DNA of 64,000 bases, taken from NCBI GenBank assembly GCA_964415935.1, contig CAYQCH010000001.1, forward strand, positions 1,144 through 65,143, written 5' to 3'. This DNA comes from an uncultured Gammaproteobacteria bacterium (GTDB lineage: Bacteria > Patescibacteriota > Patescibacteriia > VMEV01 > CAYQCH01). This document shows positions 9,307 to 58,864 of the stretch, one piece after another. Within the stretch, counting starts at the first letter, position 1. Every line of letters begins with the position of its first letter. The position numbers and the translations under genes were made by a program. The notes beneath the pieces were generated by a model that was not told the DNA's origin, did not search any database, and worked only from the letters and a program-made list of their open reading frames with translations.

Positions 9307-10137
9307 TTAGACGCTCAATGGTTTGCCCTCCGCAACGCTCTTAGCCGAGTCTTTAGCGGTTGCGGCAGAGCCCTGTCCGCCATACCGGCGTGAACGACTG
9401 GAAAATTCTTCCAGGGCTTTGTCCAGTTGTGCTTCATCAAAATCCGGCCACAAAACGTCAGTAAAGTACAGCTCGCTGTAACTCATCTGCCACAGCAGAA
9501 AATTGGATAAGCGCATTTCCCCGCCTGTACGGATGATGAGATCGGGGTCGGGCTGGCCACGGGTATACAAATGCTGAGCAACAAGCTCTTCATTGATCTC
9601 TTTGGCGCTTTTCCCGCTTTCCACCAGTTCCTTAATGGCAGAAACGATTTCCGTCCTCCCGCCATAGTTAAACATGATGTTGCACTTGATGCGCTCGTTG
9701 TCTTTTAGCACCTCCACGGCTTGTTTCATGTTGCGCTGCACGCGTTCGGGAAGCCGGCGAAGTTCGCCCAAAAAGCTGAGGCGGACGCCAGACTGGCGCA
9801 TGCGTTTGACTTCGCGGCGGAGCCCGGTAACAGTCAGTTCAAACAGATCGGCGATTTCCGCCGCGCTGCGCTTTTTAAAATTTTCGGTGCTGAATGCGTA
9901 AAACGTTACAATCTGGACCCCGCGCGCCGCCGCCGCATCAACCATTCGCGACAACGTTTCCAGGCCGGCACGATGCCCGTCAGCGGTACTTAGGCCGCGC
10001 TGCTTTGCCCAGCGGCGATTTCCGTCCATGATGATTCCAATATGTTTCGGTACGCTCATATTCAAAGTAAAGAACCGCCGCGCGCAGGCGTGGCGGCGGT
10101 AATTGGCTATCATAGCCGAGGTTGGGGCCTGCGGCAA
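9307..10137 (-). CDS. uppS: Undecaprenyl-diphosphate synthase (cis-isoprenyl transferase)
   Basis: IIMDGNRRWA and the RTGGEMRLSNFLLWQ...SELYF motifs. The start may instead be Met27 (position 10059). Confidence 0.85.
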   Translation of the reverse strand: MPQAPTSAMIANYRRHACARRFFTLNMSVPKHIGIIMDGNRRWAKQRGLSTADGHRAGLETLSRMVDAAAARGVQIVTFYAFSTENFKKRSAAEIADLFELTVTGLRREVKRMRQSGVRLSFLGELRRLPERVQRNMKQAVEVLKDNERIKCNIMFNYGGRTEIVSAIKELVESGKSAKEINEELVAQHLYTRGQPDPDLIIRTGGEMRLSNFLLWQMSYSELYFTDVLWPDFDEAQLDKALEEFSSRSRRYGGQGSAATAKDSAKSVAEGKPLSV

Positions 10138-10152
10138 GCGGGAGCACTTGTG

Positions 10153-11523
10153 CTACCCCTCCCTTGGTTGTGCTGTAATAGTTTCAACCGCCTCTTCTAC
10201 GCGATCAATGACTTTGTAGTACCTGTTGTCGCCTGACGAAATGGTTTTGTATTTCTTTAACAAGATATCGTCAATGTATTTGAGCAGAGGGTTCCAGTAA
10301 CTGCTGTCGTAAAACATGACCGGAATGCGATGGGTTTTGCCTGTTTGCATGAGCGTCAGAAGTTCAAATGCCTGGTGGAGCGTACCCAACCCTCCCGGAA
10401 AAATGACAAAAGCATTAGATGGCGCCGTTAATATGAGTTTGCGCGTGTACGGAAATTTGAAGACGGCATGCGAATTAAGATACTTGTTGCCTGAGTCCGT
10501 GTGATCTTTGCGCATGATCAAGCCCACAGACGTTGAGCCCGCCTGAGCAGCGCCCTTGTTTGCGGCTTCAGTGATTCCAGGGCCTCCACCCGTGATAATA
10601 GTATATTTGCGGCGCCCAAGCTCGAGCCCGAGGCGGTATGCTTGGTGGTAGTATTCGGATTCTTCGCTTAACGCCTTTGATCCAAGAATGGTAACGTCAT
10701 CAAGGTACGTGGTAACGAGGTCAAACCCTTCTACCAGTTCCGCCATCACTTGAAAAATGCGCCAGTTGATCTCGTTCTCACACTTAAAATTGTCTGCAGA
10801 GAGCGCACACACGTTCACCGTATCGGGGGCTTTTTTCACGATGGCATAGGCGTCATTTGCATTGTCTACCAGCGAGACCGCCGCAAGCAACCTCTCATCC
10901 AAAATGCCATGTTTGATGGCGCGCTCCCGCAAAAATTTCAAGACGGGAGACCAAAACTCTTTTCCTACCAAAATCATCGGCGAGCGAGCGATCTGGTCAT
11001 TTTCCATCAAATCAAATACCTCAAAAAATTCATCGAGCGTGCCATATCCTCCCGGGAAAAACACAAACGCTTGTGCCGGGCTTAGCAACATTACTTTGCG
11101 CGTAAAAAAATATTTGAAACCCATGGACTGCTTCACATAGGGATTCAAAATTTGTTCGAATGGCAACTGAATGTTAATGCCGATAGAAGCTCCCTTTGCA
11201 TCGAATGCGCCGCGATTTGCCGCCTCCATGATACCTGGCCCGCCTCCCGTAATGGTCGTAAACTTTCCCTTTGCCAACAAGCTGCCCATTTTCACGGCTT
11301 CTTTATAATATTTCTGCCCGGGCTTGGTGCGAGCCGACCCCAAGATAGTGACGTTTCTGGTCAGCTTTGAGACAAAATCGTACCCCTCAACCAACTCGGC
11401 CATGATTTTAAAAATGCGCCAGGGACGCTTAAAATCTACTGGCTCATGGTATTGCGAAAACACCTTTTCTCGTTTTTGTTTTGCAGTCATAACGGGTGGT
11501 AATGCCATCATTTTAGCACACAA
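10153..11523 (-). CDS. Tandem LOG-family (Lonely Guy / TIGR00730-type) fusion protein with two complete domains
   Basis: Two repeats each carry GGGPG(I/M)(M/T)EAAN and PGG(Y/L)GTL..E motifs (domain 1 around aa 35-230, domain 2 around aa 255-450). Likely start is Met12 (11490), judged from an extended -10 TGCTAAAAT overlapping the upstream ATGs. Confidence 0.75.
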   Translation of the reverse strand: MCAKMMALPPVMTAKQKREKVFSQYHEPVDFKRPWRIFKIMAELVEGYDFVSKLTRNVTILGSARTKPGQKYYKEAVKMGSLLAKGKFTTITGGGPGIMEAANRGAFDAKGASIGINIQLPFEQILNPYVKQSMGFKYFFTRKVMLLSPAQAFVFFPGGYGTLDEFFEVFDLMENDQIARSPMILVGKEFWSPVLKFLRERAIKHGILDERLLAAVSLVDNANDAYAIVKKAPDTVNVCALSADNFKCENEINWRIFQVMAELVEGFDLVTTYLDDVTILGSKALSEESEYYHQAYRLGLELGRRKYTIITGGGPGITEAANKGAAQAGSTSVGLIMRKDHTDSGNKYLNSHAVFKFPYTRKLILTAPSNAFVIFPGGLGTLHQAFELLTLMQTGKTHRIPVMFYDSSYWNPLLKYIDDILLKKYKTISSGDNRYYKVIDRVEEAVETITAQPREG

Positions 11524-18900: not shown

Positions 18901-19860
18901 TTACTGGGCCGCGGCGGTATCGCCCGAAGAGACAGAGAGGCTGTTGGTCATGGTGTCCCAAACCGCCGGGAATCGGAGTGATTTTTCCTGGCCGGCGTCA
19001 TAGTGCATGACAAACATCAGGGCACGTGACCCCGGGCCGCCATCGTCGAATGAAGCAATCACCAGCGTATGATCCTGAGTCTGGACACCGATCCAGCTTG
19101 ATTCATTTCGAAAATTGACATACTGCGTCAAATTGACCGACGGATCCTGCTGCTGCAGCCATTCTGTTACGGAAAGACGGGCCTCATTGTCGTATACCAT
19201 GATACGAAATGATTCGCTGCCCTGGTCAGGCCGGACAATAAACTCGCGTCCATCCGCGGTGCTGCGCGTGGCCGTCCAGGCGAGCGGCACGAGCAACTGG
19301 TAGCCCAAGCTCTCATTACGCGCAATTTTGATTTGCGGCGACACCTCAAGCAACGCGCGCGGCGTGGCTGGGTCATACAAGTTGCGCAACTCCACGCCAT
19401 CCAAAAAGCTATCCTGGTCCGTATCAGGCACGGACGCGCTGGTAAGGAACAGCTGCTCCTCAATGTCCGTCAAGCTGTCCTGGTCAGTATCAACCGCCAC
19501 TGGCAAGACGCCGCTGATGACGGCGGGTAACTGCACGCGCGGCGTGGCCACCGGCTGCTCTTGTACTGGCTGCGGCGCGGCTGGTTGCGCCGGCTGCTGA
19601 GGCTGTTGCTGCGCCGGCTGTTCGATAACCGGAGTTTGCTCGATCGGGGCTTGCGCAACAGGCGTTGTCTGGGGCGCGCGCGTAAAAAAGAGCACCAGAA
19701 CAATGATGACTAATAACGCCACGATGCCCAAAACAATCGCCAATATGGCAGTTGAGGAAAGCTTCTTTTTTTCCTTTGGCACATACGCATCAGGCATGAC
19801 AATCAGGCGGCCTGACAATGCCGATGACGGTGTTTCCTGTGGGGACATCTGGGTGGCCAT
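18901..19860 (-). CDS. Membrane-anchored protein with Pro/Gln-rich linker, TSP3-like Ca-binding repeats and a C-terminal unknown domain
   Basis: Single TM (ILAIVLGIVALLVIIVLVLFF), then a (QP)n linker. Repeats DTDQDSLTD and DTDQDSFLDGVE match the D-x-D-x-D-G/S motif. No family match for the C-terminal ~170 aa. Confidence 0.5.
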   Translation of the reverse strand: MATQMSPQETPSSALSGRLIVMPDAYVPKEKKKLSSTAILAIVLGIVALLVIIVLVLFFTRAPQTTPVAQAPIEQTPVIEQPAQQQPQQPAQPAAPQPVQEQPVATPRVQLPAVISGVLPVAVDTDQDSLTDIEEQLFLTSASVPDTDQDSFLDGVELRNLYDPATPRALLEVSPQIKIARNESLGYQLLVPLAWTATRSTADGREFIVRPDQGSESFRIMVYDNEARLSVTEWLQQQDPSVNLTQYVNFRNESSWIGVQTQDHTLVIASFDDGGPGSRALMFVMHYDAGQEKSLRFPAVWDTMTNSLSVSSGDTAAAQ

Positions 19861-19863
19861 AGG

Positions 19864-20544
19864 TTATGGATTGGTTGGGGCGGCGGGAGGCGCGTCCTGC
19901 GGCTGAGTTTCTTGTTGCCCCAGTTGCTCCTCTTCTGCTCCCGGCAACGTCAAAAGCTTCGCACCGACGGCATTCGGATCATATCCGGAGCGCACTTCCA
20001 TGCCATCGGGGTAGCCGTCATTATCGGAATCCGGATCCAACGGGTCGGTGTTCCACACGCGGATTTCGTCGTAATCCGTGAGGCCGTCATCATCTGAATC
20101 GACAAGCGTCGGGTTGGTACGGTTTTCAGCTTCTTCTTCATCGGAAAGACCATCGCGGTCCGTATCCACCGGCAGTTGCGTTTCAGACGCAGGAGTTTCC
20201 GTCAGAGGGACAACCGGCAATGCCTGGGTGTCCGCCGTTTGCGTCGTCGGCAACTGCGTTACTGGCTGTTGCAGCTGGTTTGCCGCGGGTGCAGGAGTTT
20301 GCCGGCTCAGATAGATGTACACCAGCGCTACGGCAATGACAACAAAACCTAACACCGCGATAACGGCAATGATGATAAGCGTTTTACTGGGCCCGGACGC
20401 CACGACGTCCTCTACAGCAGATGGCGATGGCGGCGAAGACTGGCCAGATTGATTCGGCAGCGAAGGACGAACCAGCTGCGAGGGGGCGGCATCTTGCTCC
20501 GCGCCTTCAAAAATATCTTCCGGTTCTTTTGTGTCTTCAAACAT
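19864..20544 (-). CDS. Membrane-anchored protein with three thrombospondin type-3-like Ca-binding repeats (paralog of the preceding gene)
   Basis: Single TM (LIIIAVIAVLGFVVIAVALVYIYL). Repeats DTDRDGLSDEEE, DSDDDGLTDYDE and DPDSDNDGYPDGME. Pro/Gln/Thr-rich linker and C-terminus. Confidence 0.5.
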   Translation of the reverse strand: MFEDTKEPEDIFEGAEQDAAPSQLVRPSLPNQSGQSSPPSPSAVEDVVASGPSKTLIIIAVIAVLGFVVIAVALVYIYLSRQTPAPAANQLQQPVTQLPTTQTADTQALPVVPLTETPASETQLPVDTDRDGLSDEEEAENRTNPTLVDSDDDGLTDYDEIRVWNTDPLDPDSDNDGYPDGMEVRSGYDPNAVGAKLLTLPGAEEEQLGQQETQPQDAPPAAPTNP

Positions 20545-20553
20545 ACGACAAGG

Positions 20554-21165
20554 TTAAATGGTAGGTTCAGGCAATGCCTCTGGATTTGCAAAGACTTCAT
20601 ACTGATCCAGCAAATCATTGCTATTGCGATCTACATAGAGATCTGACCGCTTTTCAGCCACATGCGCCGCGCATTCTTCGCTCAAATTCTGTATAAAAAT
20701 ATCAGCACATACCGAAGCGGCAATACGCCCTTGTACGGCCTGAAACGACAAGTGCCGCATGATGCATGTTTGGGACTGCGGTCCGGACTGGAGCTGCGCG
20801 CACAAACCCTGTTGTTCAGGGCTGAGCATCGCGACCGTTTGAGCCCACGCTTGCGGATTCGGGGGCAAAGCTACGGCGCCCGGAGCCGACACTTGTTGCG
20901 GCATATTAGAATATAGGTTCAGGCCATCCAGCAATGCGTTCAGCCGCTCTTCAGAAAGACGCGAAACATAGTTAATGGGCTTGAACTGTCGTTTTGTCTG
21001 CTCATCCACGATGTCGGAATAGGTATACAACCCGCTTGCGCGGTCAATCAACAACACCCGTTCTTCGGCATTATACAACTGCTGGCGTCTGGCAAGCGTG
21101 TAAACAAGCCAACCTGATGCCGCAATAGCGAGCAGCACGACGACAAGAATAATTTTCTTATTCAT
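20554..21165 (-). CDS. Hypothetical N-terminally anchored exported protein (203 aa) with 4 Cys
   Basis: N-terminal signal-anchor MNKKIILVVVLLAIAASGWLV. No recognisable domain. Co-directional with a 5-nt gap to the neighbouring gene. Confidence 0.4.
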   Translation of the reverse strand: MNKKIILVVVLLAIAASGWLVYTLARRQQLYNAEERVLLIDRASGLYTYSDIVDEQTKRQFKPINYVSRLSEERLNALLDGLNLYSNMPQQVSAPGAVALPPNPQAWAQTVAMLSPEQQGLCAQLQSGPQSQTCIMRHLSFQAVQGRIAASVCADIFIQNLSEECAAHVAEKRSDLYVDRNSNDLLDQYEVFANPEALPEPTI

Positions 21166-21170
21166 ATTTC

Positions 21171-23801
21171 TTAGAGCGCCTGCAAGAAGTCACACACGCG
21201 ATTATTATCAACATCTACGCATCCTAACACATAGGTCGTATTGCTTGTCGTCGAGGTTTGACCCTGGCTTGGGTCAGTCTTGGTGCTATTTCCTAGCCAC
21301 ACCATAAATCCTTGTCCTTGCTGGAAGTTCACGCGGTAGGTGTCTTGCGGCAAGAGATTGCCGCTGGGATCGCGACGGTCACGCAAGTGTTCGAGGACGA
21401 CAATGCCGCCGTTTGTGTCGATTTCCTTGGCATTCGGAAGGTAGATCCTGCCGCGGGCATACCCGCCGTTCGCCCAGGTTTCATTCGCGACCACTTCGTC
21501 GATAACCGCATCGCTGAGATTCAGTCGATGCATGGCGTTGTCATTGCCGCAATGTTCGCCATGCTTTGGAATAAAGTACGTCTGATACCTTACTTCCTGT
21601 CCGTTATACCGCCCCATCATGAAATGACCGCCGCACCCGCCATGAAACCAGGTTACAGAATCCGTCATCAACGGATATGGCAGTTTATAGTGCGAGGCGT
21701 TATACGGCCATCCCCACGGTGAACCAAACGACTGGCCATTGCGCGTAAAACTTTGTGAAGATGCGCCCGTGCAAGTCATTTGCAATTCCTCGGAAGTGGT
21801 ATCTGCCATGCTCCAACCCCAGGCACCCTTGTTCGCCACACAAAATGATTTGCGAGTATCGGCAACCACAGCATAGCTTGCTGTAACTTTGTTATTGGCC
21901 ACCTGACAGCTCTGGCACAAGCCCGGTGTTTTGGCATCATCGCATTTTTCAGGACCGTTCACCGTGCCGTCACCACAGAAACCAACCTGCCTGCATGCGT
22001 CATACGGCCCCCAGGTACAAAGAGGGTTTTGGGGCGTTGCTTCCTGAACACAGCGACGCAGTTTGTAAAAGTATGTTGGTTCAGGCTCGCAAGGAACGTC
22101 CTGCGTCTGGTTATCGCATGCCTCAAACGGGATATTGCGCGCTCCATCACCACAATACGGGCCACGCACGACATCGATTTTGCAGGAATTGGTGCAGTAG
22201 TTACAGGTTTTTCCGTACGCAGGCACGCAACGCTGTCCGTTCTTGTTGGACTCATCGCATTCTTCTCCCTGGTCAGCCTGAACGATGCCATCACCGCAGC
22301 GGGGGCCAAGCGCTTCCTGCACTTTGCAAACGCTGCTGCAGTAGGTGCAACGCTGCGCATATGCCGCCTGGCATTGCACGCCGTTTTGCTCAGATTCATC
22401 GCACGTCTCCAACCCGTTTATGATGCCGTCCCCGCAGGTTTCAATGGGCTGGCAATCAGTCCAAGGGGCGTATCTGCATGTATTGCGACAAACACGCACA
22501 CGTTGCGTGCGGTAGCCATTGATAAACGTGGAACACAACTGCGTTTCGTTATTCCCGTCGCATTCTTCGTTGAGGCCCTGCTCATTGGGGGTCTGCACCG
22601 TCCCGTCGCCGCAATACGCTACGGAGCGGACTGAACGGCAGTCTGCGGCGCATTCCTGGAACTCATTCACGCCTGATTGGCCGTCGCAAGCTTCGGTTCC
22701 TTCCGTGACATTATTACCGCAGGTTTGAAAATCGCATACGTCGCCGACGCCATCGCCGTCAAGATCTGTCTGATCTGAATTTCCGATCGTCGGACAGTTA
22801 TCTAAATTTCCGCAAACGCCATCGTTGTCCTGGTCGTTGGTGGGGTCATTTGGACAAGTGTCACAGGCGTTTCCCACGCCGTCACTGTCGGAATCAGACT
22901 GATCGGCATTGCTCACCGCCGGACAGTTGTCCACGGCGGCCCCCACCCCGTCCCCGTCAAAATCAGCGGAGTCGGCCGCGCTGAAGTTAAAGCATTGCCC
23001 GGCAGTCTGGTCGGAAAACGATTGCGTGCGCCAGCTGCCTGGTCCCTGATATTCAAAATTTGTAAACAAGTTGTAAGACAACCCGTCGGGATTGACTCGG
23101 TATGCATAGGCATATGCCTCGGGGGGACAGGAAAACTGCCTGTCTTCAACGGACCAGCAGGTCTTGGTATCATACGGGTCTTTGCAACCGATGAATTCAT
23201 TGCGCGGGTCAACGGGCACAGCAACACCGAGCAAATTCCCAAGTGTGGCCTGCCAGGACGGCCATGTGCTGTAGGTAGTGTTGGGTAAATAACTCCCCGC
23301 TTCAAAAACCGGATACTTGCCGGTCTTGACCCGGTACGACTCCAGATATCCCTGAATGTTGTTCAGGTCAGCGGCACGATGCATGTCGCGACGGATCTGC
23401 TCGCGCGTGGTCCTGTCAGTAATGTTCGTATTCAGCCGGAACTGCCTGAGAAATTCATTAAATACGGCCTGAACGGACTCGTCAGCCGTTTCGCTGTAAG
23501 AAATAAGATAAATATTGCTGTACAAGGTGCGAGAGTTGGCGTCGTAATTTGTTGCAGCCACATATACGGAGCGGCCGTCACGAACAGCAGGATATCCGTC
23601 GACTTCAAGCGCCGCGGGATTCCCAGGATTTGGCACGTTCGCGCGATACCATGTCAACGGAGATAGCCTGTCAGGGTTGGGAATAATACGTATGCCAATG
23701 GCCTGCCCGCGCCCAGTGTCTTGCGCCCGCGCAGGAAAACCGACTGCCGAGGCGGCAAACAGGCAGAAAACAATTGCTATGTAATATAGTGACTTTCTCA
23801 T
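21171..23801 (-). CDS. Large secreted cysteine-rich protein: TSP3-type repeats plus at least six Myxococcus-type cysteine-rich repeats (CGDG...EECD)
   Basis: Signal peptide from Met25 (MRKSLYYIAIVFCLFAASAVGFPARAQ). Repeats DSDSDGVGNACDTCPNDPTNDQDNDGVCGNLDNCP...DLDGDGVGDVCD. Six CGDG(x)n(E/T)CD units (e.g. CGDGIVQADQGEECDESNKNG). Cys-rich C-terminal domain. Confidence 0.6.
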   Translation of the reverse strand: MRKSLYYIAIVFCLFAASAVGFPARAQDTGRGQAIGIRIIPNPDRLSPLTWYRANVPNPGNPAALEVDGYPAVRDGRSVYVAATNYDANSRTLYSNIYLISYSETADESVQAVFNEFLRQFRLNTNITDRTTREQIRRDMHRAADLNNIQGYLESYRVKTGKYPVFEAGSYLPNTTYSTWPSWQATLGNLLGVAVPVDPRNEFIGCKDPYDTKTCWSVEDRQFSCPPEAYAYAYRVNPDGLSYNLFTNFEYQGPGSWRTQSFSDQTAGQCFNFSAADSADFDGDGVGAAVDNCPAVSNADQSDSDSDGVGNACDTCPNDPTNDQDNDGVCGNLDNCPTIGNSDQTDLDGDGVGDVCDFQTCGNNVTEGTEACDGQSGVNEFQECAADCRSVRSVAYCGDGTVQTPNEQGLNEECDGNNETQLCSTFINGYRTQRVRVCRNTCRYAPWTDCQPIETCGDGIINGLETCDESEQNGVQCQAAYAQRCTYCSSVCKVQEALGPRCGDGIVQADQGEECDESNKNGQRCVPAYGKTCNYCTNSCKIDVVRGPYCGDGARNIPFEACDNQTQDVPCEPEPTYFYKLRRCVQEATPQNPLCTWGPYDACRQVGFCGDGTVNGPEKCDDAKTPGLCQSCQVANNKVTASYAVVADTRKSFCVANKGAWGWSMADTTSEELQMTCTGASSQSFTRNGQSFGSPWGWPYNASHYKLPYPLMTDSVTWFHGGCGGHFMMGRYNGQEVRYQTYFIPKHGEHCGNDNAMHRLNLSDAVIDEVVANETWANGGYARGRIYLPNAKEIDTNGGIVVLEHLRDRRDPSGNLLPQDTYRVNFQQGQGFMVWLGNSTKTDPSQGQTSTTSNTTYVLGCVDVDNNRVCDFLQAL

Positions 23802-23869
23802 AAGGACACGGGGCGATTCATTGAAATGATACCAATTTCCCAGCCTGCGGTCTCTGTGTATAAAAGACA

Positions 23870-26800
23870 TCATTCAATGATGAACAGTGATTCCTTTAAC
23901 ACGCCCCCGACATTCTGGCCGGTAACGGGGCTGGACAGGGGCGGCAAGTCGTCATCAAACCCCGGCTCGCCGGCATCTCGGCAATAGAAAATGTCGTAAT
24001 TGAATGCCGTGTCGACGTACGGGAAGGACGTGATATCCGGCCACGGATTTTCACACAAGAAGGTTACGACATCCAGTGTGCGTGAAATGGTGCCCTGAGA
24101 CGGGGCCTGGGCGCGCGCCGTTACCGTCACCGTCGCTTCGCCATTCTGTGGATTCGGCGTCATTTCCACCTGCTCCCCCGTTGCAGGATCAAGCGTCAAA
24201 ATGGGGTCGCCTTCCACAGTCCAGGTAAAGTCAGCCGGGACAATGAATCCCGCTCGGTCGCGTCCGGTAGCCAGATAGGCATGCTGGTTCCCTTCTTTAG
24301 TCGCGTTTACGTCTCCCGGGCAGTCGTTTCGAGCGGCGCAGAATGCAACATCCAGGCGGCCGGGCTCACCGGGAGGCGTGATAAGGACATCCACGTAGTC
24401 GAGCTTGCATTCCGCTTTGCCTGTCCTGAACGTCCTGACATCTTCCCCGCTGACCGCAACGTTAAACGAGTTGCGTACTCCTTCGGGAACGTTGTCATCG
24501 AGGTTCAGGTCCCCCACCGTCCGAACGCGGTACTGGCGGTCATCCTGGAGTTTTTGCTTCGGATATACGCGGGCGCTGCTGCCGACGTCCGTATTTGAAA
24601 CGCTGACGCTGGACTCAACGCGGCACCAGTTTTCTCCTTGCGCCTGCGTGGCGGGAATCACCCAGGACAGCGCGCGGGAGGCATAGTATTTTGCTTTTGG
24701 CCACCATGCCGTAGGCGCCACGGAAGGGCATGGGATGCCGCCATTATTGATTTCCAAAATGATGCCGCTGACCAAAGACGCCTGGTTCATGGGCTGGTCA
24801 AACTCTAGCTCTATACCCAGCGTCGTACAGACGGCTTCGGCACCGTTTCGCGGATTGCTACCGATAATCCCAGGGCGCGGATAGCAGCATGAATCGGATC
24901 CGACGCCATGCGACTGGACCGTAGCCGGAGATGGACATTGATTGTCGGTTTGAAAACCGCATTGCACCGTAAAATCTCCTTCACCATTAACCCCCTGGGT
25001 GGAGGCGCGCACCTTTGTGGATCCTTCGCCGCGGCTGGTGGTAATTTGCGCCCAGTCCTTGAAATTCTCTAAAGGCAATACATCTTGCTGGGTAACGGAA
25101 GCAACCTTTGGAACGGATACGCCCCAGACCCAGTCCATGGTATCGCCGCGCAGAATCTGACCATACTGGTTACATGCGTCAGCGGGAGCTACCGGCAACG
25201 CCTGGTAGTTGAATTCTTCCAATATGAGGCTGGATATGGCTGTAGGCGGATCAATAAGCACGTCTTCAATCTGACACTGATTGGGGTCATTTCTGGTGCT
25301 GAATAGCCAGGAATAGCTGTCAATGGTGCCATCCCCGTCGGCGTCGTAGTTTAATCCCGAAAGCGGCAGCCCGCTTGCGCTGCGCATGCCCTTGAGGACG
25401 ACGCGGTACTTGGTGGCGACTTTAAACGCGCTGATATTAGGCAGGAAGTGCAGGGTAAAGCTTGTATTGTTATAGGTCAGGCTGGTTACGCCGATACTGG
25501 CGGTATTGGCGCGCGCGCAGGCCGCGTCTTTACATTCGTGTAATTCCACGTTGGCGTTAGCCGTAACCGAAGCTTCCTGCATTTCTTGATTGAATTTCGC
25601 GCCCAACGCGGCGTTGATGCAAGCGCTTGAGCAATTCGGCCATTTATCCACCACCAAAGGCGGCTCCAAAGAAATACGCAACTGACCGCTGTCTTCCTTG
25701 CTGAACTCCGGAATGGACGCAATGATATCAACCGCCGGGCCAGGATCGGTGGCACCTTTCGCCGTGGCGCGATTTTGGTATGTCCTGGACGTTTCCAGAA
25801 CAGCTTTTGATGTATCCGCGCTCAGCCAGCCCCATGTATAGGCGCTGCCGTCGAGGATATTGCAATTCAAGGCAGTGGCAACGCCCGTATACGCTTGCGT
25901 CGCACCAACTTTTTTCAACGTGGCCGTGGCTGGTGTCACTTCGACATGATCAACAGCACAGGCCCCTTCTCCCGACTGCGTCTTAAACGTCCATCGATAC
26001 GGGTTTTCCATCCTGTTGCCGTTTTCCGCTTCCACGGTATTGGCAATCGTTACCTGGTACCAGGTGTCAGGAACAAACGCCGGTTGAGGCTGGGCGATAA
26101 AGCCTTCGCCCGGCTGATTGGAATTGATGATGACAAAATTACTGAGGCTCACCGTTGTTTGGCAGCTACCGCCATCAAAGGAAGGGCCGGTGTTGCAGCG
26201 GCGCAGCTCAACTGTTCCCGCGTTCAGCGTGGCGTCCTTCATATCATGGGTAAAGCGGGCGGAAACAGCCGCGTTCAAACAAGCATCAACGGTGTCCTTA
26301 AATGGTGACGGGCTTTGCGTGTTGTTTTTGCACGTCGCTTGCTCGATGACGCGCGGGATGCCGCCCAGGTCGTCGCCCGTGCCGAATGTCCAGGAATACG
26401 TACACAACGGCAGGGCCTCGGAACAGGTTCCGGCGGCCTGGCATGCTCCAGAAGAGCAGCATTCAAAGCCTGTTCCGCACGTGTCCGGGCTGCATTGTCC
26501 AACACGGAAGTTCAACCCGTTGCTTAGTTGTCCCGTGGAGGCAATGACTTGTACCAATCCCGTCTGGGCCGTGGGCGGCACGGCTACGCGGATCTGCCCG
26601 TCGTTCCAGGAAACAACGTCCGAAATATCAACGCGCGAATGGAAGCGTACGCCCCCCTTGTTTACGCCGAATCCCTCGCCATACAACACGGTTTCAATGC
26701 CTAGCGGGCCGTTGTCAGGTTCCATGGCGCACAGTCCGGGCAACCGGCCGCCGGCGGTAACGGTAAAGCTGGCCGGATTGCTGCGACCAGCATCTGTTTC

Positions 26801-28864
26801 TAAAAATACTTCGTAAATACCTGGATCCAGGCGCGGGACCCGGAACGCGCGCTGCTCGCCTTTGCGGAAGAAGCGCAAACAGCTGTCCGGCAGTCTGGTG
26901 TCGGCCAGCGTGACTTCACCTGTGCGCGGGTTTAAAAACTTCACAAGCGGCGTGCGCGACAAATTTTCGCCGATGATGGAGAAAATTTGTCCGACCGGGC
27001 CGCGATCCGGAGAAACGGAATCCAGGCGCGGCAACGTAGGCGATGAGGTCACAGACATGAACACCGGATTGCTGGTCAACGGACCTACCTGCACGCGCAC
27101 GGGCACGACACCCTCCGGCAGGGATGGCACGACCACATCGGAAATCTGTTCGTCTGCCCAGGTGCCGATGCGTCCGGCCCTGGCTTGTCCAAAGGAAACA
27201 TCGCCTAGCGTGGCTCCAAAGCCGTTGCCGCGCAGCGTAACCGGCTCTCCAACTTGCTGGCTGCCCGGTTCAACCGCGCATAAACCCGGGCGCCGCGTGT
27301 CGTTGATTTCAAAAATCACGCGTCCACCCTTGTCGTCATCGGTGGTGTCATACAACCCCTCTGCCGTGGTCAGACGAAGCGCGCCTGTGCGAGCGTTGGC
27401 AGGCACCTGCAGCACGACCTGCGTGTTGCTCCAGGCCCCGACGCATGGAAACGCGTCAACCGTTGCATCGTCGTCGTCCGCGCTCAAGCCAAGAAACACA
27501 AGCGTACCGGTTTCTGTTCCGAAATTACGTCCGCGGACGGTAACAAAATTTCCAGGCGCGCCATTGGCCTCAATCACTTCTTCAATCACCGGATAGTCAC
27601 GGCAGAATCCGCCGACACAGAGGCCGGAGGCGCACTGCGAATTTTCCGTACACGCGGCGCCCTGGCAGAGACGGCAGGTCGGGCCGCCGCAATCGACGCC
27701 TTCTTCATCCTCATTCTGCTGGCCGTCAAAACAATAGGCGGGCAAAATTTCCACGGATATTTCCGGGCTCAGCCCGGTCTGTCCCGCTAAATCAACGGCC
27801 GCGGCTGTAATGGCGTGACGGCTCTTTAGCGCAAGATCGATGGTAAGCCAGGTCGCGCTGCCGCGAAATTCAGTAACGACATCGGGACCGGAAGCCGGCG
27901 CCACGCCCACGGACGATCCATCAACAAAAAATTCCAAAAAGGCCACGGCATAGTCGTCCAATGCCAGGGCTTCCAACAACACGGAGCTGTTCTGCCCCAC
28001 CGCCGCGTCATTATATGGCAAAGTCATGCGAGCCGTGGGAGCGATGGTATCGACAGCCTCACCGGTCACAAATCCAAATGCGCACTGCGAAGTTGGCGAC
28101 GGACAACGGAAGGCATCGCCATCGGCGCTGGTCAAAGCGGAACTTATAACCGCTTCATAGGCCACATTCGCGTCAAAGCAGCGGACTTGTTCATTCGGCG
28201 AGGGACAAGCCTGGTTGGGAACGAATATGGCCCGGCTTCCCTTTACCGACCACGATCCGGCTACAGGAGCTGTTTCACCGGTCTTGCGGACATAGGCATT
28301 CTGCTCAATACCGGTCTGCGTGATGTCCTGGTTAAACAGCAGCTGCACCTGGACGTTGCGGATGGGCACCACGCCGGAAGGCAAGGCATCAATGAGCAAC
28401 AACGCGTCGCGCGTGTCCAGGCCGCTTTGTCCGACCGGCTGCGACAAAGGCGCCTGCTGGCTGGCTCGGCGCTGCTGGCTGCGAATGACAACGAAGCTGA
28501 TAAGCAGCAGTACCGCACAGAGCACGAATACAATGCCAAACACCAGCGCCAGGCGGCGGCCGCGCTCCAAAACAAGGATGTCATTGTTCTGGCTGCCATT
28601 TCGCCAAAGCACGATGCCGTAACTCATGCCTGCCAGGCTGAGAATGAGGCCGACGAATGCGGTTAACTGCAATACGCGCCATACCGTACTCGGCTGAGCT
28701 GCTTCCACTGTGGTTTGCGCCACATTTTGCGACGACGCGCCTTCCGTGACCTGAACGGCGTCCTGGGCCAGAGCCGGAATGGCCACAGCAAAGACTGCAC
28801 CCCAGGCAAACAAAGCGGACACAAGCATGGATCGAAAACAGCGCATACTCAAGCTACGGACCAA
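23870..28864 (-). CDS. Giant surface protein (1664 aa): signal peptide plus TrbC/VirB2-like two-helix membrane hairpin, then Ig-like (Big), Cys-knot and IPT/TIG repeat arrays
   Basis: N-terminus: signal peptide (...AIPALAQ), then hydrophobic helix, W-R-N-G-S-Q-N-N loop, hydrophobic helix. Multiple IPT/TIG-like units (PRLDSVSPDRGPVGQIFSIIGENL, LCAVEPGSQQVGEPVTLRGNGFG). Has D..AP-type Big starts. No LPXTG or C-terminal TM. Overlaps or abuts the upstream gene. Confidence 0.6.
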   Translation of the reverse strand: MVRSLSMRCFRSMLVSALFAWGAVFAVAIPALAQDAVQVTEGASSQNVAQTTVEAAQPSTVWRVLQLTAFVGLILSLAGMSYGIVLWRNGSQNNDILVLERGRRLALVFGIVFVLCAVLLLISFVVIRSQQRRASQQAPLSQPVGQSGLDTRDALLLIDALPSGVVPIRNVQVQLLFNQDITQTGIEQNAYVRKTGETAPVAGSWSVKGSRAIFVPNQACPSPNEQVRCFDANVAYEAVISSALTSADGDAFRCPSPTSQCAFGFVTGEAVDTIAPTARMTLPYNDAAVGQNSSVLLEALALDDYAVAFLEFFVDGSSVGVAPASGPDVVTEFRGSATWLTIDLALKSRHAITAAAVDLAGQTGLSPEISVEILPAYCFDGQQNEDEEGVDCGGPTCRLCQGAACTENSQCASGLCVGGFCRDYPVIEEVIEANGAPGNFVTVRGRNFGTETGTLVFLGLSADDDDATVDAFPCVGAWSNTQVVLQVPANARTGALRLTTAEGLYDTTDDDKGGRVIFEINDTRRPGLCAVEPGSQQVGEPVTLRGNGFGATLGDVSFGQARAGRIGTWADEQISDVVVPSLPEGVVPVRVQVGPLTSNPVFMSVTSSPTLPRLDSVSPDRGPVGQIFSIIGENLSRTPLVKFLNPRTGEVTLADTRLPDSCLRFFRKGEQRAFRVPRLDPGIYEVFLETDAGRSNPASFTVTAGGRLPGLCAMEPDNGPLGIETVLYGEGFGVNKGGVRFHSRVDISDVVSWNDGQIRVAVPPTAQTGLVQVIASTGQLSNGLNFRVGQCSPDTCGTGFECCSSGACQAAGTCSEALPLCTYSWTFGTGDDLGGIPRVIEQATCKNNTQSPSPFKDTVDACLNAAVSARFTHDMKDATLNAGTVELRRCNTGPSFDGGSCQTTVSLSNFVIINSNQPGEGFIAQPQPAFVPDTWYQVTIANTVEAENGNRMENPYRWTFKTQSGEGACAVDHVEVTPATATLKKVGATQAYTGVATALNCNILDGSAYTWGWLSADTSKAVLETSRTYQNRATAKGATDPGPAVDIIASIPEFSKEDSGQLRISLEPPLVVDKWPNCSSACINAALGAKFNQEMQEASVTANANVELHECKDAACARANTASIGVTSLTYNNTSFTLHFLPNISAFKVATKYRVVLKGMRSASGLPLSGLNYDADGDGTIDSYSWLFSTRNDPNQCQIEDVLIDPPTAISSLILEEFNYQALPVAPADACNQYGQILRGDTMDWVWGVSVPKVASVTQQDVLPLENFKDWAQITTSRGEGSTKVRASTQGVNGEGDFTVQCGFQTDNQCPSPATVQSHGVGSDSCCYPRPGIIGSNPRNGAEAVCTTLGIELEFDQPMNQASLVSGIILEINNGGIPCPSVAPTAWWPKAKYYASRALSWVIPATQAQGENWCRVESSVSVSNTDVGSSARVYPKQKLQDDRQYRVRTVGDLNLDDNVPEGVRNSFNVAVSGEDVRTFRTGKAECKLDYVDVLITPPGEPGRLDVAFCAARNDCPGDVNATKEGNQHAYLATGRDRAGFIVPADFTWTVEGDPILTLDPATGEQVEMTPNPQNGEATVTVTARAQAPSQGTISRTLDVVTFLCENPWPDITSFPYVDTAFNYDIFYCRDAGEPGFDDDLPPLSSPVTGQNVGGVLKESLFIIE

Positions 28865-30470
28865 CGCAAGGCTGGTAGCAATTCTGATAAATGTCTTTTA
28901 CGTTTGATGACACAACGGGCGTGTATGTCGCATTCTCATCCAACCCTGCGTGCACCATCTGCACGACCGTCTGATTTTCTTCCACGGACGAAGAAATCTG
29001 ATAATCAAGCCCGGGAACCTGCACGGTCTGGCGGTTGATGGTCTTTAACCACAGGGGTTTATCGAAGGTAACGGTCAAGCGGCTGTCGCGCGGGACCAGC
29101 GTGGCGTATGGCTGCGGCGATACCGCGCTCACGACGGGCGCGCGCAGGTCTATCTGGTCAGTGGTTTGAAAACTCCAGGCGAAGTCGTCGGCCGGGCTGC
29201 CTTGCGCTGCGCCGTCGACATTGCCATCAAAGGAGTTGCCTGACGCATCTACGACGCCGTCAAACGGAAAGACGGCCACCGGCGGTTGCGCGCTGACCGT
29301 GGCAGCGCGGACGCGTGCCGTAAACTTGGCGCTGGGCGGCAAGCAAAACACGTCCTGGCCGCAGGAATTGGTGCCACATAAATCATTGGTGACGAATTCG
29401 GCCGTGCGGTACTGGTTGCTGATGGTAAACCGGCCTGCCACCACTTCCCCGTTCTGTCCGCGCACGCTCAGGTTGTTAAATCCGCGCGCGGTATCGCCGC
29501 TGACGGCCAAGGGGTTCATGGCTTCGCTGAACGTCACCTGCACGATAATGTTGCGAGCATACGTCTGATCCGGTTGCGGGATAACGCTGACCACGCGCGG
29601 CGGCTCCAGATCAACAAACGTCCCCACCTCGAATTCCCAGGTATAGGCGCCGAAATTACCAAACGCCCCCCTGCCGGCCGCGGTGGAAATGCCCTCTCCC
29701 AGCGTTACGCGATACAGGGTGTTTTGTTCGGCGCTGCCGAGCAAGTCAATGGGGTCAATGACCAGGATGCGGGCGTCGTCGCTGACTGCCGCGCGCGCCG
29801 GAACAAACGGACCGGACTGCGGGTCATCGCTGGCCTTGGAGATAAAAATATTTTGGCCGTTAATCTCGTCGTCGGCCGGATCTTCCGTGCCCTTGTTATT
29901 AATGAGTGAGTCAACCAGCATGGGCTCAACGAAACTGACCATGATGTTGGTGTTGCGCGCAAGATTGGTCTGGCCGCGGTCGGGATAGTGCGATTCGATT
30001 ACGCCCAAAGGAAATCCGCCGCCCCCGCCCAAAAACCCGCCTGTGCCGCGGCGGCCAAAGGATGACGGTTGTGTCTCCGGACCGCCCACCAGGCGGTTGA
30101 GGACGAACGTTACAATGCCGAAAGAAGACAAGATGATGATCAAACCAATCAGGCCGTTGCGCAACAGCGTCTTGGCCGTATTGACCTGGTCATCATTGCC
30201 CGCCGCGGTCATCCAAAGATATCCCGCATATAAAAGCAGCCCCAGGGCGACAATTCCTAAAAAGCCCAGGGCCACTTGTATGACGCGCGCGATAATGACG
30301 CGCGGGTCGCTTCCGCTCAATCCAACCGATTCCGCTTGCTCCAGCCCGACGTCTACCGTCTGGGCAAAAGCCGGTTCATGCAAAACCAGGGATGAAACAA
30401 GCAACGCGGCGATGATGAATCCCGCGAAAATGATGATGCGTTTCAACCCCGAAAGCATGGGAACTTGCAT
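28854..30470 (-). CDS. Surface protein (538 aa) with TrbC/VirB2 pilin-like N-terminal anchor followed by SbsA-type Ig-like (Big_5) domains
   Basis: N-terminus: signal peptide (..HEPAFAQ), then QVALGFLGIVALGLLLYAGYLWMTAAGNDDQVNTAKTLLRNGLIGLIIILSSFGIVTFV, two hydrophobic helices with a short polar loop as in VirB2/TrbC. Gly-rich linker. Two Ig-like modules begin PRVVSVIPQPDQTYA and RAPVVSAVSPQPYATL. Confidence 0.55.
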   Translation of the reverse strand: MQVPMLSGLKRIIIFAGFIIAALLVSSLVLHEPAFAQTVDVGLEQAESVGLSGSDPRVIIARVIQVALGFLGIVALGLLLYAGYLWMTAAGNDDQVNTAKTLLRNGLIGLIIILSSFGIVTFVLNRLVGGPETQPSSFGRRGTGGFLGGGGGFPLGVIESHYPDRGQTNLARNTNIMVSFVEPMLVDSLINNKGTEDPADDEINGQNIFISKASDDPQSGPFVPARAAVSDDARILVIDPIDLLGSAEQNTLYRVTLGEGISTAAGRGAFGNFGAYTWEFEVGTFVDLEPPRVVSVIPQPDQTYARNIIVQVTFSEAMNPLAVSGDTARGFNNLSVRGQNGEVVAGRFTISNQYRTAEFVTNDLCGTNSCGQDVFCLPPSAKFTARVRAATVSAQPPVAVFPFDGVVDASGNSFDGNVDGAAQGSPADDFAWSFQTTDQIDLRAPVVSAVSPQPYATLVPRDSRLTVTFDKPLWLKTINRQTVQVPGLDYQISSSVEENQTVVQMVHAGLDENATYTPVVSSNVKDIYQNCYQPCVGP

Positions 30471-46703: not shown

Positions 46704-46711
46704 TTTTGCCT

Positions 46712-57292: not shown

Positions 57293-58864
57293 TTATTGTT
57301 TTGGCTCGCTGGCCGGCGCTGATGGCGCGGTGGCCGGATCGATGGCCGGGGGAACCGGCGCAATGGATGATGTCTCCTTCAGCATGGCGCCGCCCCCAAT
57401 ACCCAGCGGCATAATCACCTGTTGTTCGTAGGAATCCAGGATTTCTTTGATAACAGGCACAACGATCGAGCGTTGGCCGTAGTAATCCTGCGGCGCATCA
57501 AGAACCGGGAATACCAGCGCTGGTACATAGAGTTCTTCGTTCACTCCGTTCGTGTAATGCAGGAACTGCATCAAGGTATGCGTAGGCGTGCCCAAAGCGA
57601 TTTCCTTGGCATCGGGGGCCTCCTCGGCTCCCCACCAGCCGTACAGGCCGCCCCGCTCAGCAACCTTGATAATGCGGGAGGCATCCTGCTCCGTGGGGTA
57701 CGAAGATGATTCATACCGCTGGACGTTGAGGTTCCAGACGCCAAAGACTTTCTTTTCGCGCTGATGAACTTCGACACGCAGGCCATACAAGTTCCCGCCG
57801 GTATCCCGCACTTCCTGTCCCTGCAGCTGCAGCGGGAACACCACGCCGACGGTATCGGGGATATACACCTGGGATTTATCGACGGCCTGGTCATAGGCAA
57901 GGCGCCATTGGTTGTCCATAACCGGCGCGCCATATGTGGAAGCGTCAATGCCGTGCTGGGCAAGGAAAGACGTGGCGATGGAAATGGCCTCGCTGTCAGG
58001 AATGGCCTCGCCGATGGTCAGCGGCGGCGGGCAGTTGCCGCGGGCGCAAGCCGCGTTCTGCTCGGCAAACCAGGTTTCGTAATTGGGGTTGATGTACACC
58101 GTGCCTTCAAAGAAGTTGATGCCGATGTTGTAGCCGCCGGCGCGGTCTTCATACAAATCGATGGATCGGACCTGCGGATTGGCGAAGCTGCCGATATTCA
58201 CGAGCTCTCCGCCCAAGCCGGAGGCGATGCGCGCAATGTCAGAGCTGTTGAGCCGCTTGATGCGCTTATGCACATCAAGGCTGGCTTCGTCTACGGTCAG
58301 CTCATCGCCGCGATACACGAACTTGTACGGCTGGTACCAGGGCCGATCAATAACCATTTCAGAAGCAATTTTATCCGATGCGGGGCTCGGAGCCGGGAAT
58401 CCCCCGCCGCCGAAACCGCCGCCGCTTTGCGAGCGGCTCGCTTCCGCCAGCACGGCCAATGAACCAAAGGCGTTACTGGTCTGCGGCGTGAATACGGGCG
58501 TATTCGTCAAAGAGGAAATGAGATCAGAAGAAGAAAGACTGCTCAGGTTGCGCGCGGGCGTGGTGGCCAGGTACATGACCGGCAGCATGAATACCAGCGC
58601 GACCAGAGCTCCAGAAAGCCCGTACGTCAGGCGCGCGGAAGTGATGAATGACATAAGCGTTTTGATAGGTGATAAGGATGGACGGTCGGCGGCCAGAAGC
58701 TGGCGGCGCAATCGGCGGGCGAAGGCCTTGTCAAAAGTGTTCGCTGGCTGCTGATCCAGAAGCGACTGGACAATGCGGCGCAATTCGTCCTTGCGTCCGG
58801 CCAGGCTCGGCTCCATGTCGCAGAGCTCTCGCACGATTTGTTCTATGGTGGTAGATGATTTCAT
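57293..58864 (-). CDS. Putative anti-sigma factor: cytoplasmic N-terminus, one TM segment, large extracytoplasmic domain
   Basis: Its start overlaps the ECF sigma stop (58861/58864). Single TM (LTYGLSGALVALVFMLPVMYLA), Gly-rich linker, ~380-aa external domain. Confidence 0.5.
   Translation of the reverse strand: MKSSTTIEQIVRELCDMEPSLAGRKDELRRIVQSLLDQQPANTFDKAFARRLRRQLLAADRPSLSPIKTLMSFITSARLTYGLSGALVALVFMLPVMYLATTPARNLSSLSSSDLISSLTNTPVFTPQTSNAFGSLAVLAEASRSQSGGGFGGGGFPAPSPASDKIASEMVIDRPWYQPYKFVYRGDELTVDEASLDVHKRIKRLNSSDIARIASGLGGELVNIGSFANPQVRSIDLYEDRAGGYNIGINFFEGTVYINPNYETWFAEQNAACARGNCPPPLTIGEAIPDSEAISIATSFLAQHGIDASTYGAPVMDNQWRLAYDQAVDKSQVYIPDTVGVVFPLQLQGQEVRDTGGNLYGLRVEVHQREKKVFGVWNLNVQRYESSSYPTEQDASRIIKVAERGGLYGWWGAEEAPDAKEIALGTPTHTLMQFLHYTNGVNEELYVPALVFPVLDAPQDYYGQRSIVVPVIKEILDSYEQQVIMPLGIGGGAMLKETSSIAPVPPAIDPATAPSAPASEPKQ

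Follow-up and report, generated by a model that had tools for sequence, protein, structure and literature searches.

A modular cysteine-rich protein of Patescibacteria, fused to its giant neighbour in sister lineages, as a candidate distal part of a surface fibre

What is the role, in a small-genome bacterium, of a protein that carries calcium-binding-type and cysteine-rich repeats behind a signal peptide and is encoded directly after a giant adhesin-like gene? The question is raised by a reverse-strand gene, here called the target, in a stretch of 64,000 nucleotides (nt) from contig CAYQCH010000001.1 of assembly GCA_964415935.1, referred to below as the window. A preliminary description of the target, drawn from the letters of the DNA, presented it as a secreted protein of 900 amino acids (aa) combining thrombospondin type-3 (TSP3) repeats with at least six Myxococcus-type cysteine-rich repeats. 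Three features escaped that description: a conserved N-terminal domain (N-domain), a C-terminal jelly-roll (C-domain) and a split-gene relation with the upstream gene, g1664. The reading favoured here, which we consider somewhat better than an even guess, is that the target makes up the outer, ligand-binding portion of an adhesin-like fibre on the cell surface, as a subunit of a conserved six-gene surface block. The target comes from an ultra-small bacterium of the Patescibacteria, or Candidate Phyla Radiation (CPR). This group makes up much of the bacterial world not yet in culture, and its members are presumed to live attached to other cells; apart from type IV pili and, in cultivated Saccharibacteria, a few adhesins, little is known about their means of attachment.

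The most informative evidence comes from related loci. A scan of genomes with the N-domain profile retrieved 20 loci (numbered L001 onwards), and all the taxonomically informative titles among them are those of Patescibacteria (Falkow-, Buchanan-, Kerfeld- and Uhrbacteria). In 14 of these 20 loci, the target and g1664 are one open reading frame (ORF) of about 2,000-4,200 aa. Twelve of the fused ORFs were verified (L005, L007-L010, L012-L014 and L016-L019): they encode 2,536-4,198 aa, with no stops and no Ns, and their blastp matches are collinear, a g1664-like region being followed by a target-like one. The other two, L011 and L015, were judged to be fused from ORF extent and tblastn. In L007, for example, residues 1255-1664 of g1664 correspond to 1518-1949 of the fused chain and residues 24-644 of the target to 1940-2592. 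The same order is seen in L012 (g1664 1274-1664 on 1609-2079, target 58-644 on 2086-2773) and in L010 (g1664 1451-1661 on 1990-2220, target 51-276 on 2222-2471). The giant neighbour g1664 encodes 1,664 aa with Big_5, TIG and Big_7 domains; a position next to giant adhesin-like genes had been pointed out earlier.

The junction itself is well defined. In the fused forms it reads ...ENPWP...(F)YYCRD.G...DDLP...(L/F)KE(F/Y)L(F/L)..., then a few residues, then DA(I/V)G(I/V)RV..N..H.SP..WY, and no hydrophobic segment is found at this place. The C-terminus of g1664 (...ENPWP..FYCRDAG..DDLPPLSSP..LKESLFIIE, followed by the stop) is contiguous with the mature N-terminus of the target in the fused orthologs. 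In the window, g1664 ends with ...ENPWPDITSFPYVDTAFNYDIFYCRDAGEPGFDDDLPPLSSPVTGQNVGGVLKESLFIIE and a stop, and the mature target starts with QDTGRGQAIGIRIIPNPDRLSPLTWY. Since both ends match the junction, the split corresponds to a stop, a new start and an insert of about 50 aa carrying a signal peptide, placed exactly in the linker. The g1664 stop overlaps the first ATG of the target (ATGA). The split state recurs in L001, L002, L003, L004 and L006 and in the database proteins P0001-P0020; in these split loci, conservation of the upstream gene product reaches its very last C-terminal residue. The two genes lie in one frame in L001 and L003, with one or two stops between them; the frames differ in L002 and in the window. 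In L001 (around 9870-9990) and L003 (around 2360-2480), the gap consists of these one or two stops and about 15-35 codons, including the new signal peptide; the same-frame split of these two loci may represent a recent state of fission. As judged from these sequences, the fission/fusion relation is genuine and conserved, and not an assembly error. Because the two proteins are fused in sister lineages, the Rosetta-stone argument suggests that the target and g1664 are physically linked, and their association appears rather probable. Such a natural fusion/fission pair predicts a specific interface, between the C-terminal module of g1664 and the N-domain of the target.

This N-domain (aa 51-296) is the best conserved part of the target, with 73% mean column identity in alignment A2 and 65-66% mean pairwise identity. 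Its hallmarks are the motifs AIGIRVxPNP..SP..WY, VDGYxAVRDGRxVYV, NIYxIS, STWPSWQ, DPxN and TCW, whose columns are invariant in 17-46 sequences and which come either after a signal peptide or after a g1664-like region; the target belongs to the family so defined. The N-domain gave no Pfam or NCBIfam match, and the family, for which neither collection has a model, is delineated by alignments A2, A4 and A5. Profile searches against Protein Data Bank (PDB) sequences, with these three alignments for the N-domain and with A3 for the C-domain, yielded chance-level matches (E around 0.4) or none. The family is a large one. A profile search retrieved 62 further proteins, among which those of 250-430 aa are little more than the domain behind a signal peptide. 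When subdomain B, the second part of the domain, was used for an exhaustive HMMER search, representatives of 1,503 clusters at 50% identity were retrieved, 1,340 with E <=1e-10. Among the best 150 of these 1,503 matches, all belong to the same family, and the domain typically occupies about residues 150-300 of proteins of 280-1,850 aa. The N-domain thus provides an easily recognised marker, without a Pfam model, for variable surface proteins of these lineages. Many stand-alone N-domain proteins (A4 columns about 150-350; e.g. P0161, P0165, P0167 and P0170) have Cys-rich insertions between subdomains A and B, with weak matches to Dickkopf_N (16/41), Dumpy_DPY and DUF7107; the insertion is absent from the target.

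What follows the N-domain varies widely within the family. In a sample of 46 members, the C-terminal extensions carry He_PIG (20), Big_9 (9), DUF4215 (8), MopE (7), NHL/Vgb propellers (7) and ConA-like lectin domains (5), as well as VWA, PKD, cadherin, fibrinogen-C, papain and M64 peptidase domains. The DUF4215 matches are strong in the eight members concerned (best E 1.2e-29). When 144 representatives were inspected for the motifs of the target, 30 had at least two CGDG...CD units, 17 at least two DxDxDG motifs, and only four had both. The diversity of these extensions indicates that the one found in the target is one variant of a swappable adhesin-type toolkit, and its repeat composition is an ordinary mix of known extracellular repeat types.

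The target itself runs from the signal peptide through the N-domain of about 245 aa, four TSP type-3 repeats and six Cys-rich units to the jelly-roll, a domain composition that can be considered nearly certain. Its length of 900 aa, as given in the preliminary description, holds when counted from the first ATG; the coordinates reported with it, 21171-23801, correspond to 876 aa, position 23801 being the ATG of Met25 (MRKSLYY...). Met25 is likely to be the true start: the 876-aa form is 100% identical to the database protein P0001, as called in the database, and a start equivalent to Met25, followed by a signal peptide, is found in most of the target orthologs. The protein was also said to be secreted, and a Sec signal peptide is indeed present, with cleavage predicted between ARA and QD. 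This segment is the least conserved of the target (24% mean pairwise identity), and the AxAQ cleavage site is kept in 19 orthologs. Twenty full-length orthologs, with 48-71% identity, are available from independent assemblies, and nearly all of the 49 Cys of the target (5.4% of the protein) are invariant across them. The cleavable Sec signal peptide supports secretion, and the invariance of the cysteines argues for extracytoplasmic disulfides; a location outside the cell is highly probable.

The TSP3 region contains four DxDxDG motifs, starting at aa 304, 327, 347 and 370, in line with the run of such motifs noticed earlier upstream of the Cys-rich units. The Pfam TSP_3 model (PF02412) scores 45.8 bits against a gathering threshold of 25 (E 4.9e-12, two stretches reported), and 46.0 bits on the 876-aa form. 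The DxDxD[GN] pattern, observed four times, did not exceed three occurrences in any of 20,000 residue shuffles. Six Cys are interspersed (aa 317, 337, 340, 354, 360 and 380), and all are invariant in the 20 orthologs. Binding of Ca2+ by these repeats is predicted from the motif. They resemble the DxDxDGxxDxxDNCP... Ca2+-binding loops, with interspersed Cys, of thrombospondin, COMP and bacterial surface proteins with TSP_3; unlike thrombospondin, the target has only four repeats and is devoid of the C-terminal lectin-like domain. Hundreds of bacterial proteins match this part, which represents 9% of the query, at 50-70% identity. Membership in the MtsC equivalog family (NF047638) was rejected, with 58.6 bits against a cutoff of 350 over aa 293-405 only. 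MtsC, a MYXO-CTERM protein of Myxococcus cell-cell cohesion, thus shares the repeat only, and the target lacks the MYXO-CTERM sorting signal. Membership in the Omp28-selenoprotein and CglD families was rejected likewise, as these matches involve the TSP3 part only and lie far below cutoff.

The six Cys-rich units fit the motif CG[DN][GN]x5-14[ET]xCD and start at aa 385, 421, 480, 526, 574 and 633, with the very strings quoted in the preliminary description. Three Cys patterns can be distinguished: units 1 and 6 are canonical 4-Cys repeats, units 3 and 4 share a 6-Cys form (C-x10/12-CD-x8-C-x7-C-x2-C-x3-C), and units 2 and 5 are 6-Cys forms of 59 aa. On the whole target, the NCBIfam model TIGR02232 (myxo_disulf_rpt) scores 24.6 bits against a curated cutoff of 20.8 (E 1.7e-5), so that both hidden Markov models (HMMs) proposed at the outset for checking the repeats, TSP_3 and TIGR02232, pass on the whole protein. 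When each unit is scanned alone, TIGR02232 is the sole NCBIfam match, with scores of 8.6-20.2 bits, none of the six reaching 20.8. Five of the six match only about positions 2-21 of the 38 in the model, i.e. the CGDG...E.CD half, and the divergent 6-Cys second halves of units 2-5 are not matched by models. Pfam DUF4215 (PF13948) stays below threshold on the whole target (15.7 versus 27 bits) and scores 9.9-18.7 bits on units 2, 3, 4 and 6 taken singly; the orthologs P0002 and P0007 carry precomputed PF13948 matches. Taken together, the sequence comparisons support an assignment of these units as divergent variants of the TIGR02232/DUF4215 type. They differ from Myxococcus-type repeat proteins (TIGR02232, DUF4215/PF13948, "fibro-slime"), which are likewise secreted and have tandem CGDG-x(5-14)-E-x-CD units with acidic residues and paired Cys, in that units 1 and 6 alone keep the canonical 4-Cys form, units 2-5 being 6-Cys variants of 46-59 aa, and in their position between a Patescibacteria-specific N-domain and a jelly-roll tip.

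Compositional bias, the possibility that would have undermined the repeats, was rejected by residue shuffling. The full unit motif, observed six times, occurred at most once in any of 20,000 shuffles of aa 385-660, and the shorter CG[DN][GN], also observed six times, at most three times; as these counts exceed all the shuffles, the repeats are not a product of bias. A recent tandem duplication was rejected as well, the first 39 nt of the units being only 31-67% identical to one another. Given this divergence and the invariance of the Cys across the 20 orthologs, the units are best seen as old repeats fixed in position. The rarity outside Myxococcota implied earlier turned out to be overstated. 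A search with the Cys region alone (21894-22721, reverse strand) retrieved 204 proteins at E <=1e-3; among the 120 listed, PF13948 is present in nearly every one, under names such as "cysteine-rich repeat protein", "DUF4215 domain-containing" and "fibro-slime". The sources of these listed matches include Polyangia, Patescibacteria, Aenigmarchaeota and Woesearchaeota, so that DUF4215 proteins of Patescibacteria and DPANN archaea are among them.

The C-domain is modelled by AlphaFold2 (AF2) with a predicted local distance difference test (pLDDT) score of 89.6. The fold of this predicted model is only generically like galactose-binding-like, CBM, F-lectin and TNF-like folds, in alignments spanning 90-117 of 242 residues, and a Foldseek search of the model against the PDB gave nothing at E <=1e-3. 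It had been described as rich in Cys, Gly and aromatics. This does not hold for Cys (six, or 2.5%, versus 5.4% for the whole protein) and holds weakly for Gly (10.4%) and aromatics (11.3%, versus 10.0% for the whole protein). Sequence change in the C-domain is about twice as rapid as elsewhere in the target, with 31-43% versus 65-67% mean pairwise identity. From the conservation of its six Cys, three disulfides are predicted (C678/C701, C747/C775 and C885/C894). A confidently modelled and fast-evolving tip domain of this kind is suited to expression and ligand screening.

How could these parts work together? In the reading favoured here, the N-domain would, after export, dock non-covalently on the conserved C-terminal module of membrane-anchored g1664, and thereby rebuild a fibre that is made as one chain in sister lineages. 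The TSP3 and Cys-rich repeats would form a stiff spacer held firm by Ca2+ and disulfides, and the ligand bound by the variable jelly-roll tip, on a host cell or a substrate, could well be a glycan. Support comes from the anchor-like character of g538, the first gene of the block, and of g1664, each with a signal peptide and a two-transmembrane (two-TM) hairpin, and from the adhesin-like nature of the N-domain extensions. The reading also fits what has been published: large Cys-rich extracellular proteins with a presumed role in attachment are known from CPR bacteria (PMC4736985), epibiotic growth of cultivated Patescibacteria depends on adhesins (PMC10633639), and VirB2-like gene arrays are widespread in Patescibacteria (PMC12102498). 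Several observations weigh against it. The putative interaction of the target with g1664 is read from gene structure. Nothing recognisable as an anchor, be it a TM helix, an LPxTG or a lipobox, is present in the target, which could simply be released. The second half of the N-domain is poorly modelled by AF2 (pLDDT <50). As to the anchors, g538 scores 25.2 bits with T4SS_pilin, just below the cutoff of 26.6, and g1664 has no T4SS_pilin match. Finally, the place of the block next to ftsA/ftsZ might point to an envelope or division role instead.

Two of these points lead directly to alternatives. If fission had freed the target from an anchored giant, it could be a soluble exoprotein that leaves the producer cell, for instance a lectin, a toxin-like factor or a component of a matrix or biofilm; a cleavable signal peptide as sole targeting element without any anchor motif, the presence of DUF4215 repeats in secreted "fibro-slime" proteins and the existence of stand-alone N-domain proteins of 250-430 aa would all agree with this. 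Yet conservation of both the N-domain and the g1664 C-terminus extends right to the split point, which would be expected of parts that still interact, the operon is tight and its synteny with membrane-anchored partners class-wide, and Pfam and NCBIfam scans detected no toxin or enzyme domain in the target, all of which makes free release unlikely. The invariable adjacency of the block to ybeY-ftsA-ftsZ, near an M23 peptidase, HtrA and an LCP-family gene, would rather suggest a structural component of the envelope, S-layer-like or part of a wall scaffold, tied to division or envelope integrity and not to cell adhesion. Ca2+-binding TSP3 repeats are common in envelope proteins, and subdomain A of the N-domain bears a weak resemblance to the envelope lipoproteins LpqN and DcrB. 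Synteny alone, however, does not imply a division function, the modules attached C-terminally in the family differ greatly from member to member and have an adhesin- or lectin-like character, and a tip that evolves at twice the rate of the remaining protein fits the usual pattern of outward-facing recognition modules better than that of housekeeping scaffolds; an envelope scaffold is accordingly judged improbable too.

Subdomain B deserves separate consideration, because it could be taken for a pseudopilin fold inserted in a pilus, which would make the target a minor pilin or a tip adhesin associated with a type IV pilus or a type II secretion system (T2SS). It scores 13.9 bits with Pfam T2SSG (PF08334; cutoff 21), with weak matches in 7/41 family members, and 12.6 bits with TIGR01710 (cutoff 88.85); both matches to these GspG models are weak and sub-threshold, recur in the family in the former case, and are in register with the post-TM part of GspG. 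Type IV pili do matter in CPR episymbiosis. Nevertheless, the target shows no class III (prepilin) signal, no G|FTLIE motif and no N-terminal hydrophobic helix, and has a Sec signal with an AxA signal peptidase I (SPase I) site instead; the domain is internal in a protein of 2,000-4,200 aa in 14 loci, which is incompatible with pilin assembly; no PDB sequence match was obtained, and the block contains no pilus genes. A role in a pilus is thus very unlikely. Across the loci, a single bona fide prepilin was found (L004). That the protein is not real, but a result of compositional bias or of an annotation or assembly artefact, has a negligible probability in view of the 20 full-length orthologs with invariant Cys from independent assemblies, the HMM scores above cutoff and the shuffles excluding bias.

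Beyond the favoured reading of the target as the distal part of a fibre, a bolder and more doubtful proposal can be made for the whole block. The hisS-ybeY block might encode an undescribed surface organelle, found across a class-level group of Patescibacteria, with giant Ig-like fibres, VirB2-like hairpin anchors, a distal half bearing swappable adhesive modules (in the target TSP3, DUF4215-type repeats and a new jelly-roll) and a fast-evolving tip that sets host specificity. The distal half would be part of the same chain or, after fission, would be exported separately and docked again through the N-domain. Docking might use beta-strand complementation; alternatively, it might imitate what autoproteolysis of the fused proteins would produce at this site.

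The organisation recalls modular giant adhesins stiffened by Ca2+, such as the repeats-in-toxin (RTX) adhesins MpIBP and SiiE, which consist of an anchor, a long extender, Ca2+-dependent spacers and a distal ligand-binding beta-sandwich. The logic of the block is similar, with a cell-proximal anchor, an Ig-like extender (Big_5 and TIG in g1664), Ca2+ spacers and a distal beta-sandwich. The differences are that no RTX or type I secretion system signal is present here, that the organism is a monoderm CPR bacterium and export would be through Sec, that the anchor is apparently a VirB2-like two-TM hairpin, and that the fibre is split into two polypeptides. Closer in lineage are the large Cys-rich extracellular proteins of Peribacteria (PMC4736985), which come from CPR bacteria and have signal peptides and a high Cys content like the target; they belong to a different CPR lineage, average 1,655 aa and were compared by description, and that report makes no mention of the N-domain, the gene block or the fission. 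The VirB2-like arrays (T4SS_pilin, PF18895; PMC12102498) resemble g538 and g1664 in their tandem arrangement and in their N-terminal signal peptide with two TM helices; in g538 and g1664, 400-1,500 aa of Ig-like domains follow these hairpins in the same chain, and the target itself has no such module. The two genes may be a tandem VirB2-like array (cf. PMC12102498) extended by Ig-like domains. Their N-termini align weakly with each other (E 0.01). Neither the repeat classes nor their occurrence in surface proteins of CPR bacteria are new, the latter having already been reported. A limited literature search found no description of an N-domain family of at least 1,500 clusters, of a class-wide six-gene block, or of a split/fused organisation with a signal peptide in the linker, and, searched for Patescibacteria together with thrombospondin or giant adhesins, it yielded nothing on the locus.

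The coordinates of the target, its parts and the other genes of the block are collected in Table 1.

Table 1. Features of the target and of the six-gene block (positions in the window; residue numbers counted from the first ATG of the target).
Feature	Position	Strand	Description
Target ORF	21171..23873	-	900 aa counted from first ATG
Sec signal peptide	23724..23801	-	aa 25-50, MRKSLYYIAIVFCLFAASAVGFPARA followed by QD; AxA-type SPase I site, without lipobox
Segment between signal peptide and N-domain subdomain B	23412..23723	-	
N-domain subdomain B	22986..23411	-	aa 155-296; long helix RRDMHRAADLNNIQGYLESY, invariant STWPSWQ and DPxN, 4 conserved Cys
Four Cys-containing TSP type-3 (DxDxDG) Ca2+-binding-type repeats	22722..22985	-	aa 297-384
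Cys-rich unit 1	22614..22721	-	aa 385-420, canonical 4-Cys; TIGR02232 11.9 bits, model 2-31 of 38
Cys-rich unit 2	22437..22613	-	aa 421-479, 59-aa 6-Cys form; TIGR02232 8.6 bits
Cys-rich unit 3	22299..22436	-	aa 480-525, 6-Cys C-x10-CD-x8-C-x7-C-x2-C-x3-C; TIGR02232 17.6, DUF4215 16.6 bits
Cys-rich unit 4	22155..22298	-	aa 526-573, 6-Cys subtype of unit 3; TIGR02232 20.0, DUF4215 18.7 bits
Cys-rich unit 5	21978..22154	-	aa 574-632, 59-aa 6-Cys form; TIGR02232 14.0 bits
Cys-rich unit 6	21894..21977	-	aa 633-660, canonical 4-Cys; TIGR02232 20.2, DUF4215 16.9 bits
C-terminal domain	21174..21893	-	aa 661-900, all-beta jelly-roll, 6 conserved Cys, conserved terminal CVDVDNNxxCDF motif
g538, first gene of the block	28854..30470	-	signal peptide, VirB2/T4SS_pilin-like two-TM hairpin, Big_5 x3
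g1664, upstream neighbour	23870..28864	-	1,664 aa; signal peptide, two-TM hairpin, Big_5 x4, TIG x2, Big_7
g203	20554..21165	-	single-pass membrane protein, no family match; position downstream of target conserved
g226	19864..20544	-	single-pass membrane protein; three Cys-less bacterial TSP3 repeats (TSP3_bac 52.2 bits)
g319, last gene of the block, directly before ybeY-ftsA-ftsZ	18901..19860	-	single-pass membrane protein, P/Q-rich linker, TSP3-like DTDQD motifs

The target is the third gene of this tightly packed same-strand block, which lies between hisS and ybeY-ftsA-ftsZ with gaps of -11 to +9 nt. The order lepB-hisS-[g538-g1664-target-g203-g226-g319]-ybeY-ftsA-ftsZ recurs in the majority of the 20 loci. 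Upstream of the seven genes inspected at the block, none shows a Shine-Dalgarno-like motif, which agrees, for this stretch, with the earlier remark that the genome lacks such motifs. The operon neighbour g226 carries the Cys-less bacterial type of TSP3 repeat (TSP3_bac), in contrast to the Cys-containing TSP_3 of the target, so that one operon holds both the latter type and the Cys-less one (g226 and g319). Six of the loci (L001, L002, L003, L009, L012 and L019), which are Third Party Annotation metagenome-assembled genomes (MAGs), bear the title "uncultured Gammaproteobacteria bacterium"; their gene order and named relatives are those of Patescibacteria, and the Gammaproteobacteria label of these six MAGs looks like a placeholder or a mis-assignment.

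Around the block, the window is the ordinary chromosome of a small-genome bacterium, with genes for EF-Tu, EF-G, ATP synthase alpha and beta, DnaG, Der, LexA, HtrA, an M23 peptidase, an LCP-family protein, HisRS, LepB, YbeY, FtsA and FtsZ. The parts of the window examined contain no virB4 or other type IV secretion system gene, and no tRNA gene or Rfam family at gathering threshold was found in the whole 64 kb. Three further ORFs can be mentioned. An 874-aa ORF on the forward strand (46706-49330), rich in A, E, L, D, Q and K and without a Pfam match, looks coiled-coil and lies in the stretch of strongest AT-skew of the window (0.25). Another of 523 aa on the reverse strand (57293-58864), also without a Pfam match, has one TM-like segment and a Gly-rich linker. 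Adjoining lexA, a 456-aa protein is encoded on the reverse strand (10153-11523), with two LOG (Lysine_decarbox) stretches and a SLOG cluster-4 domain.

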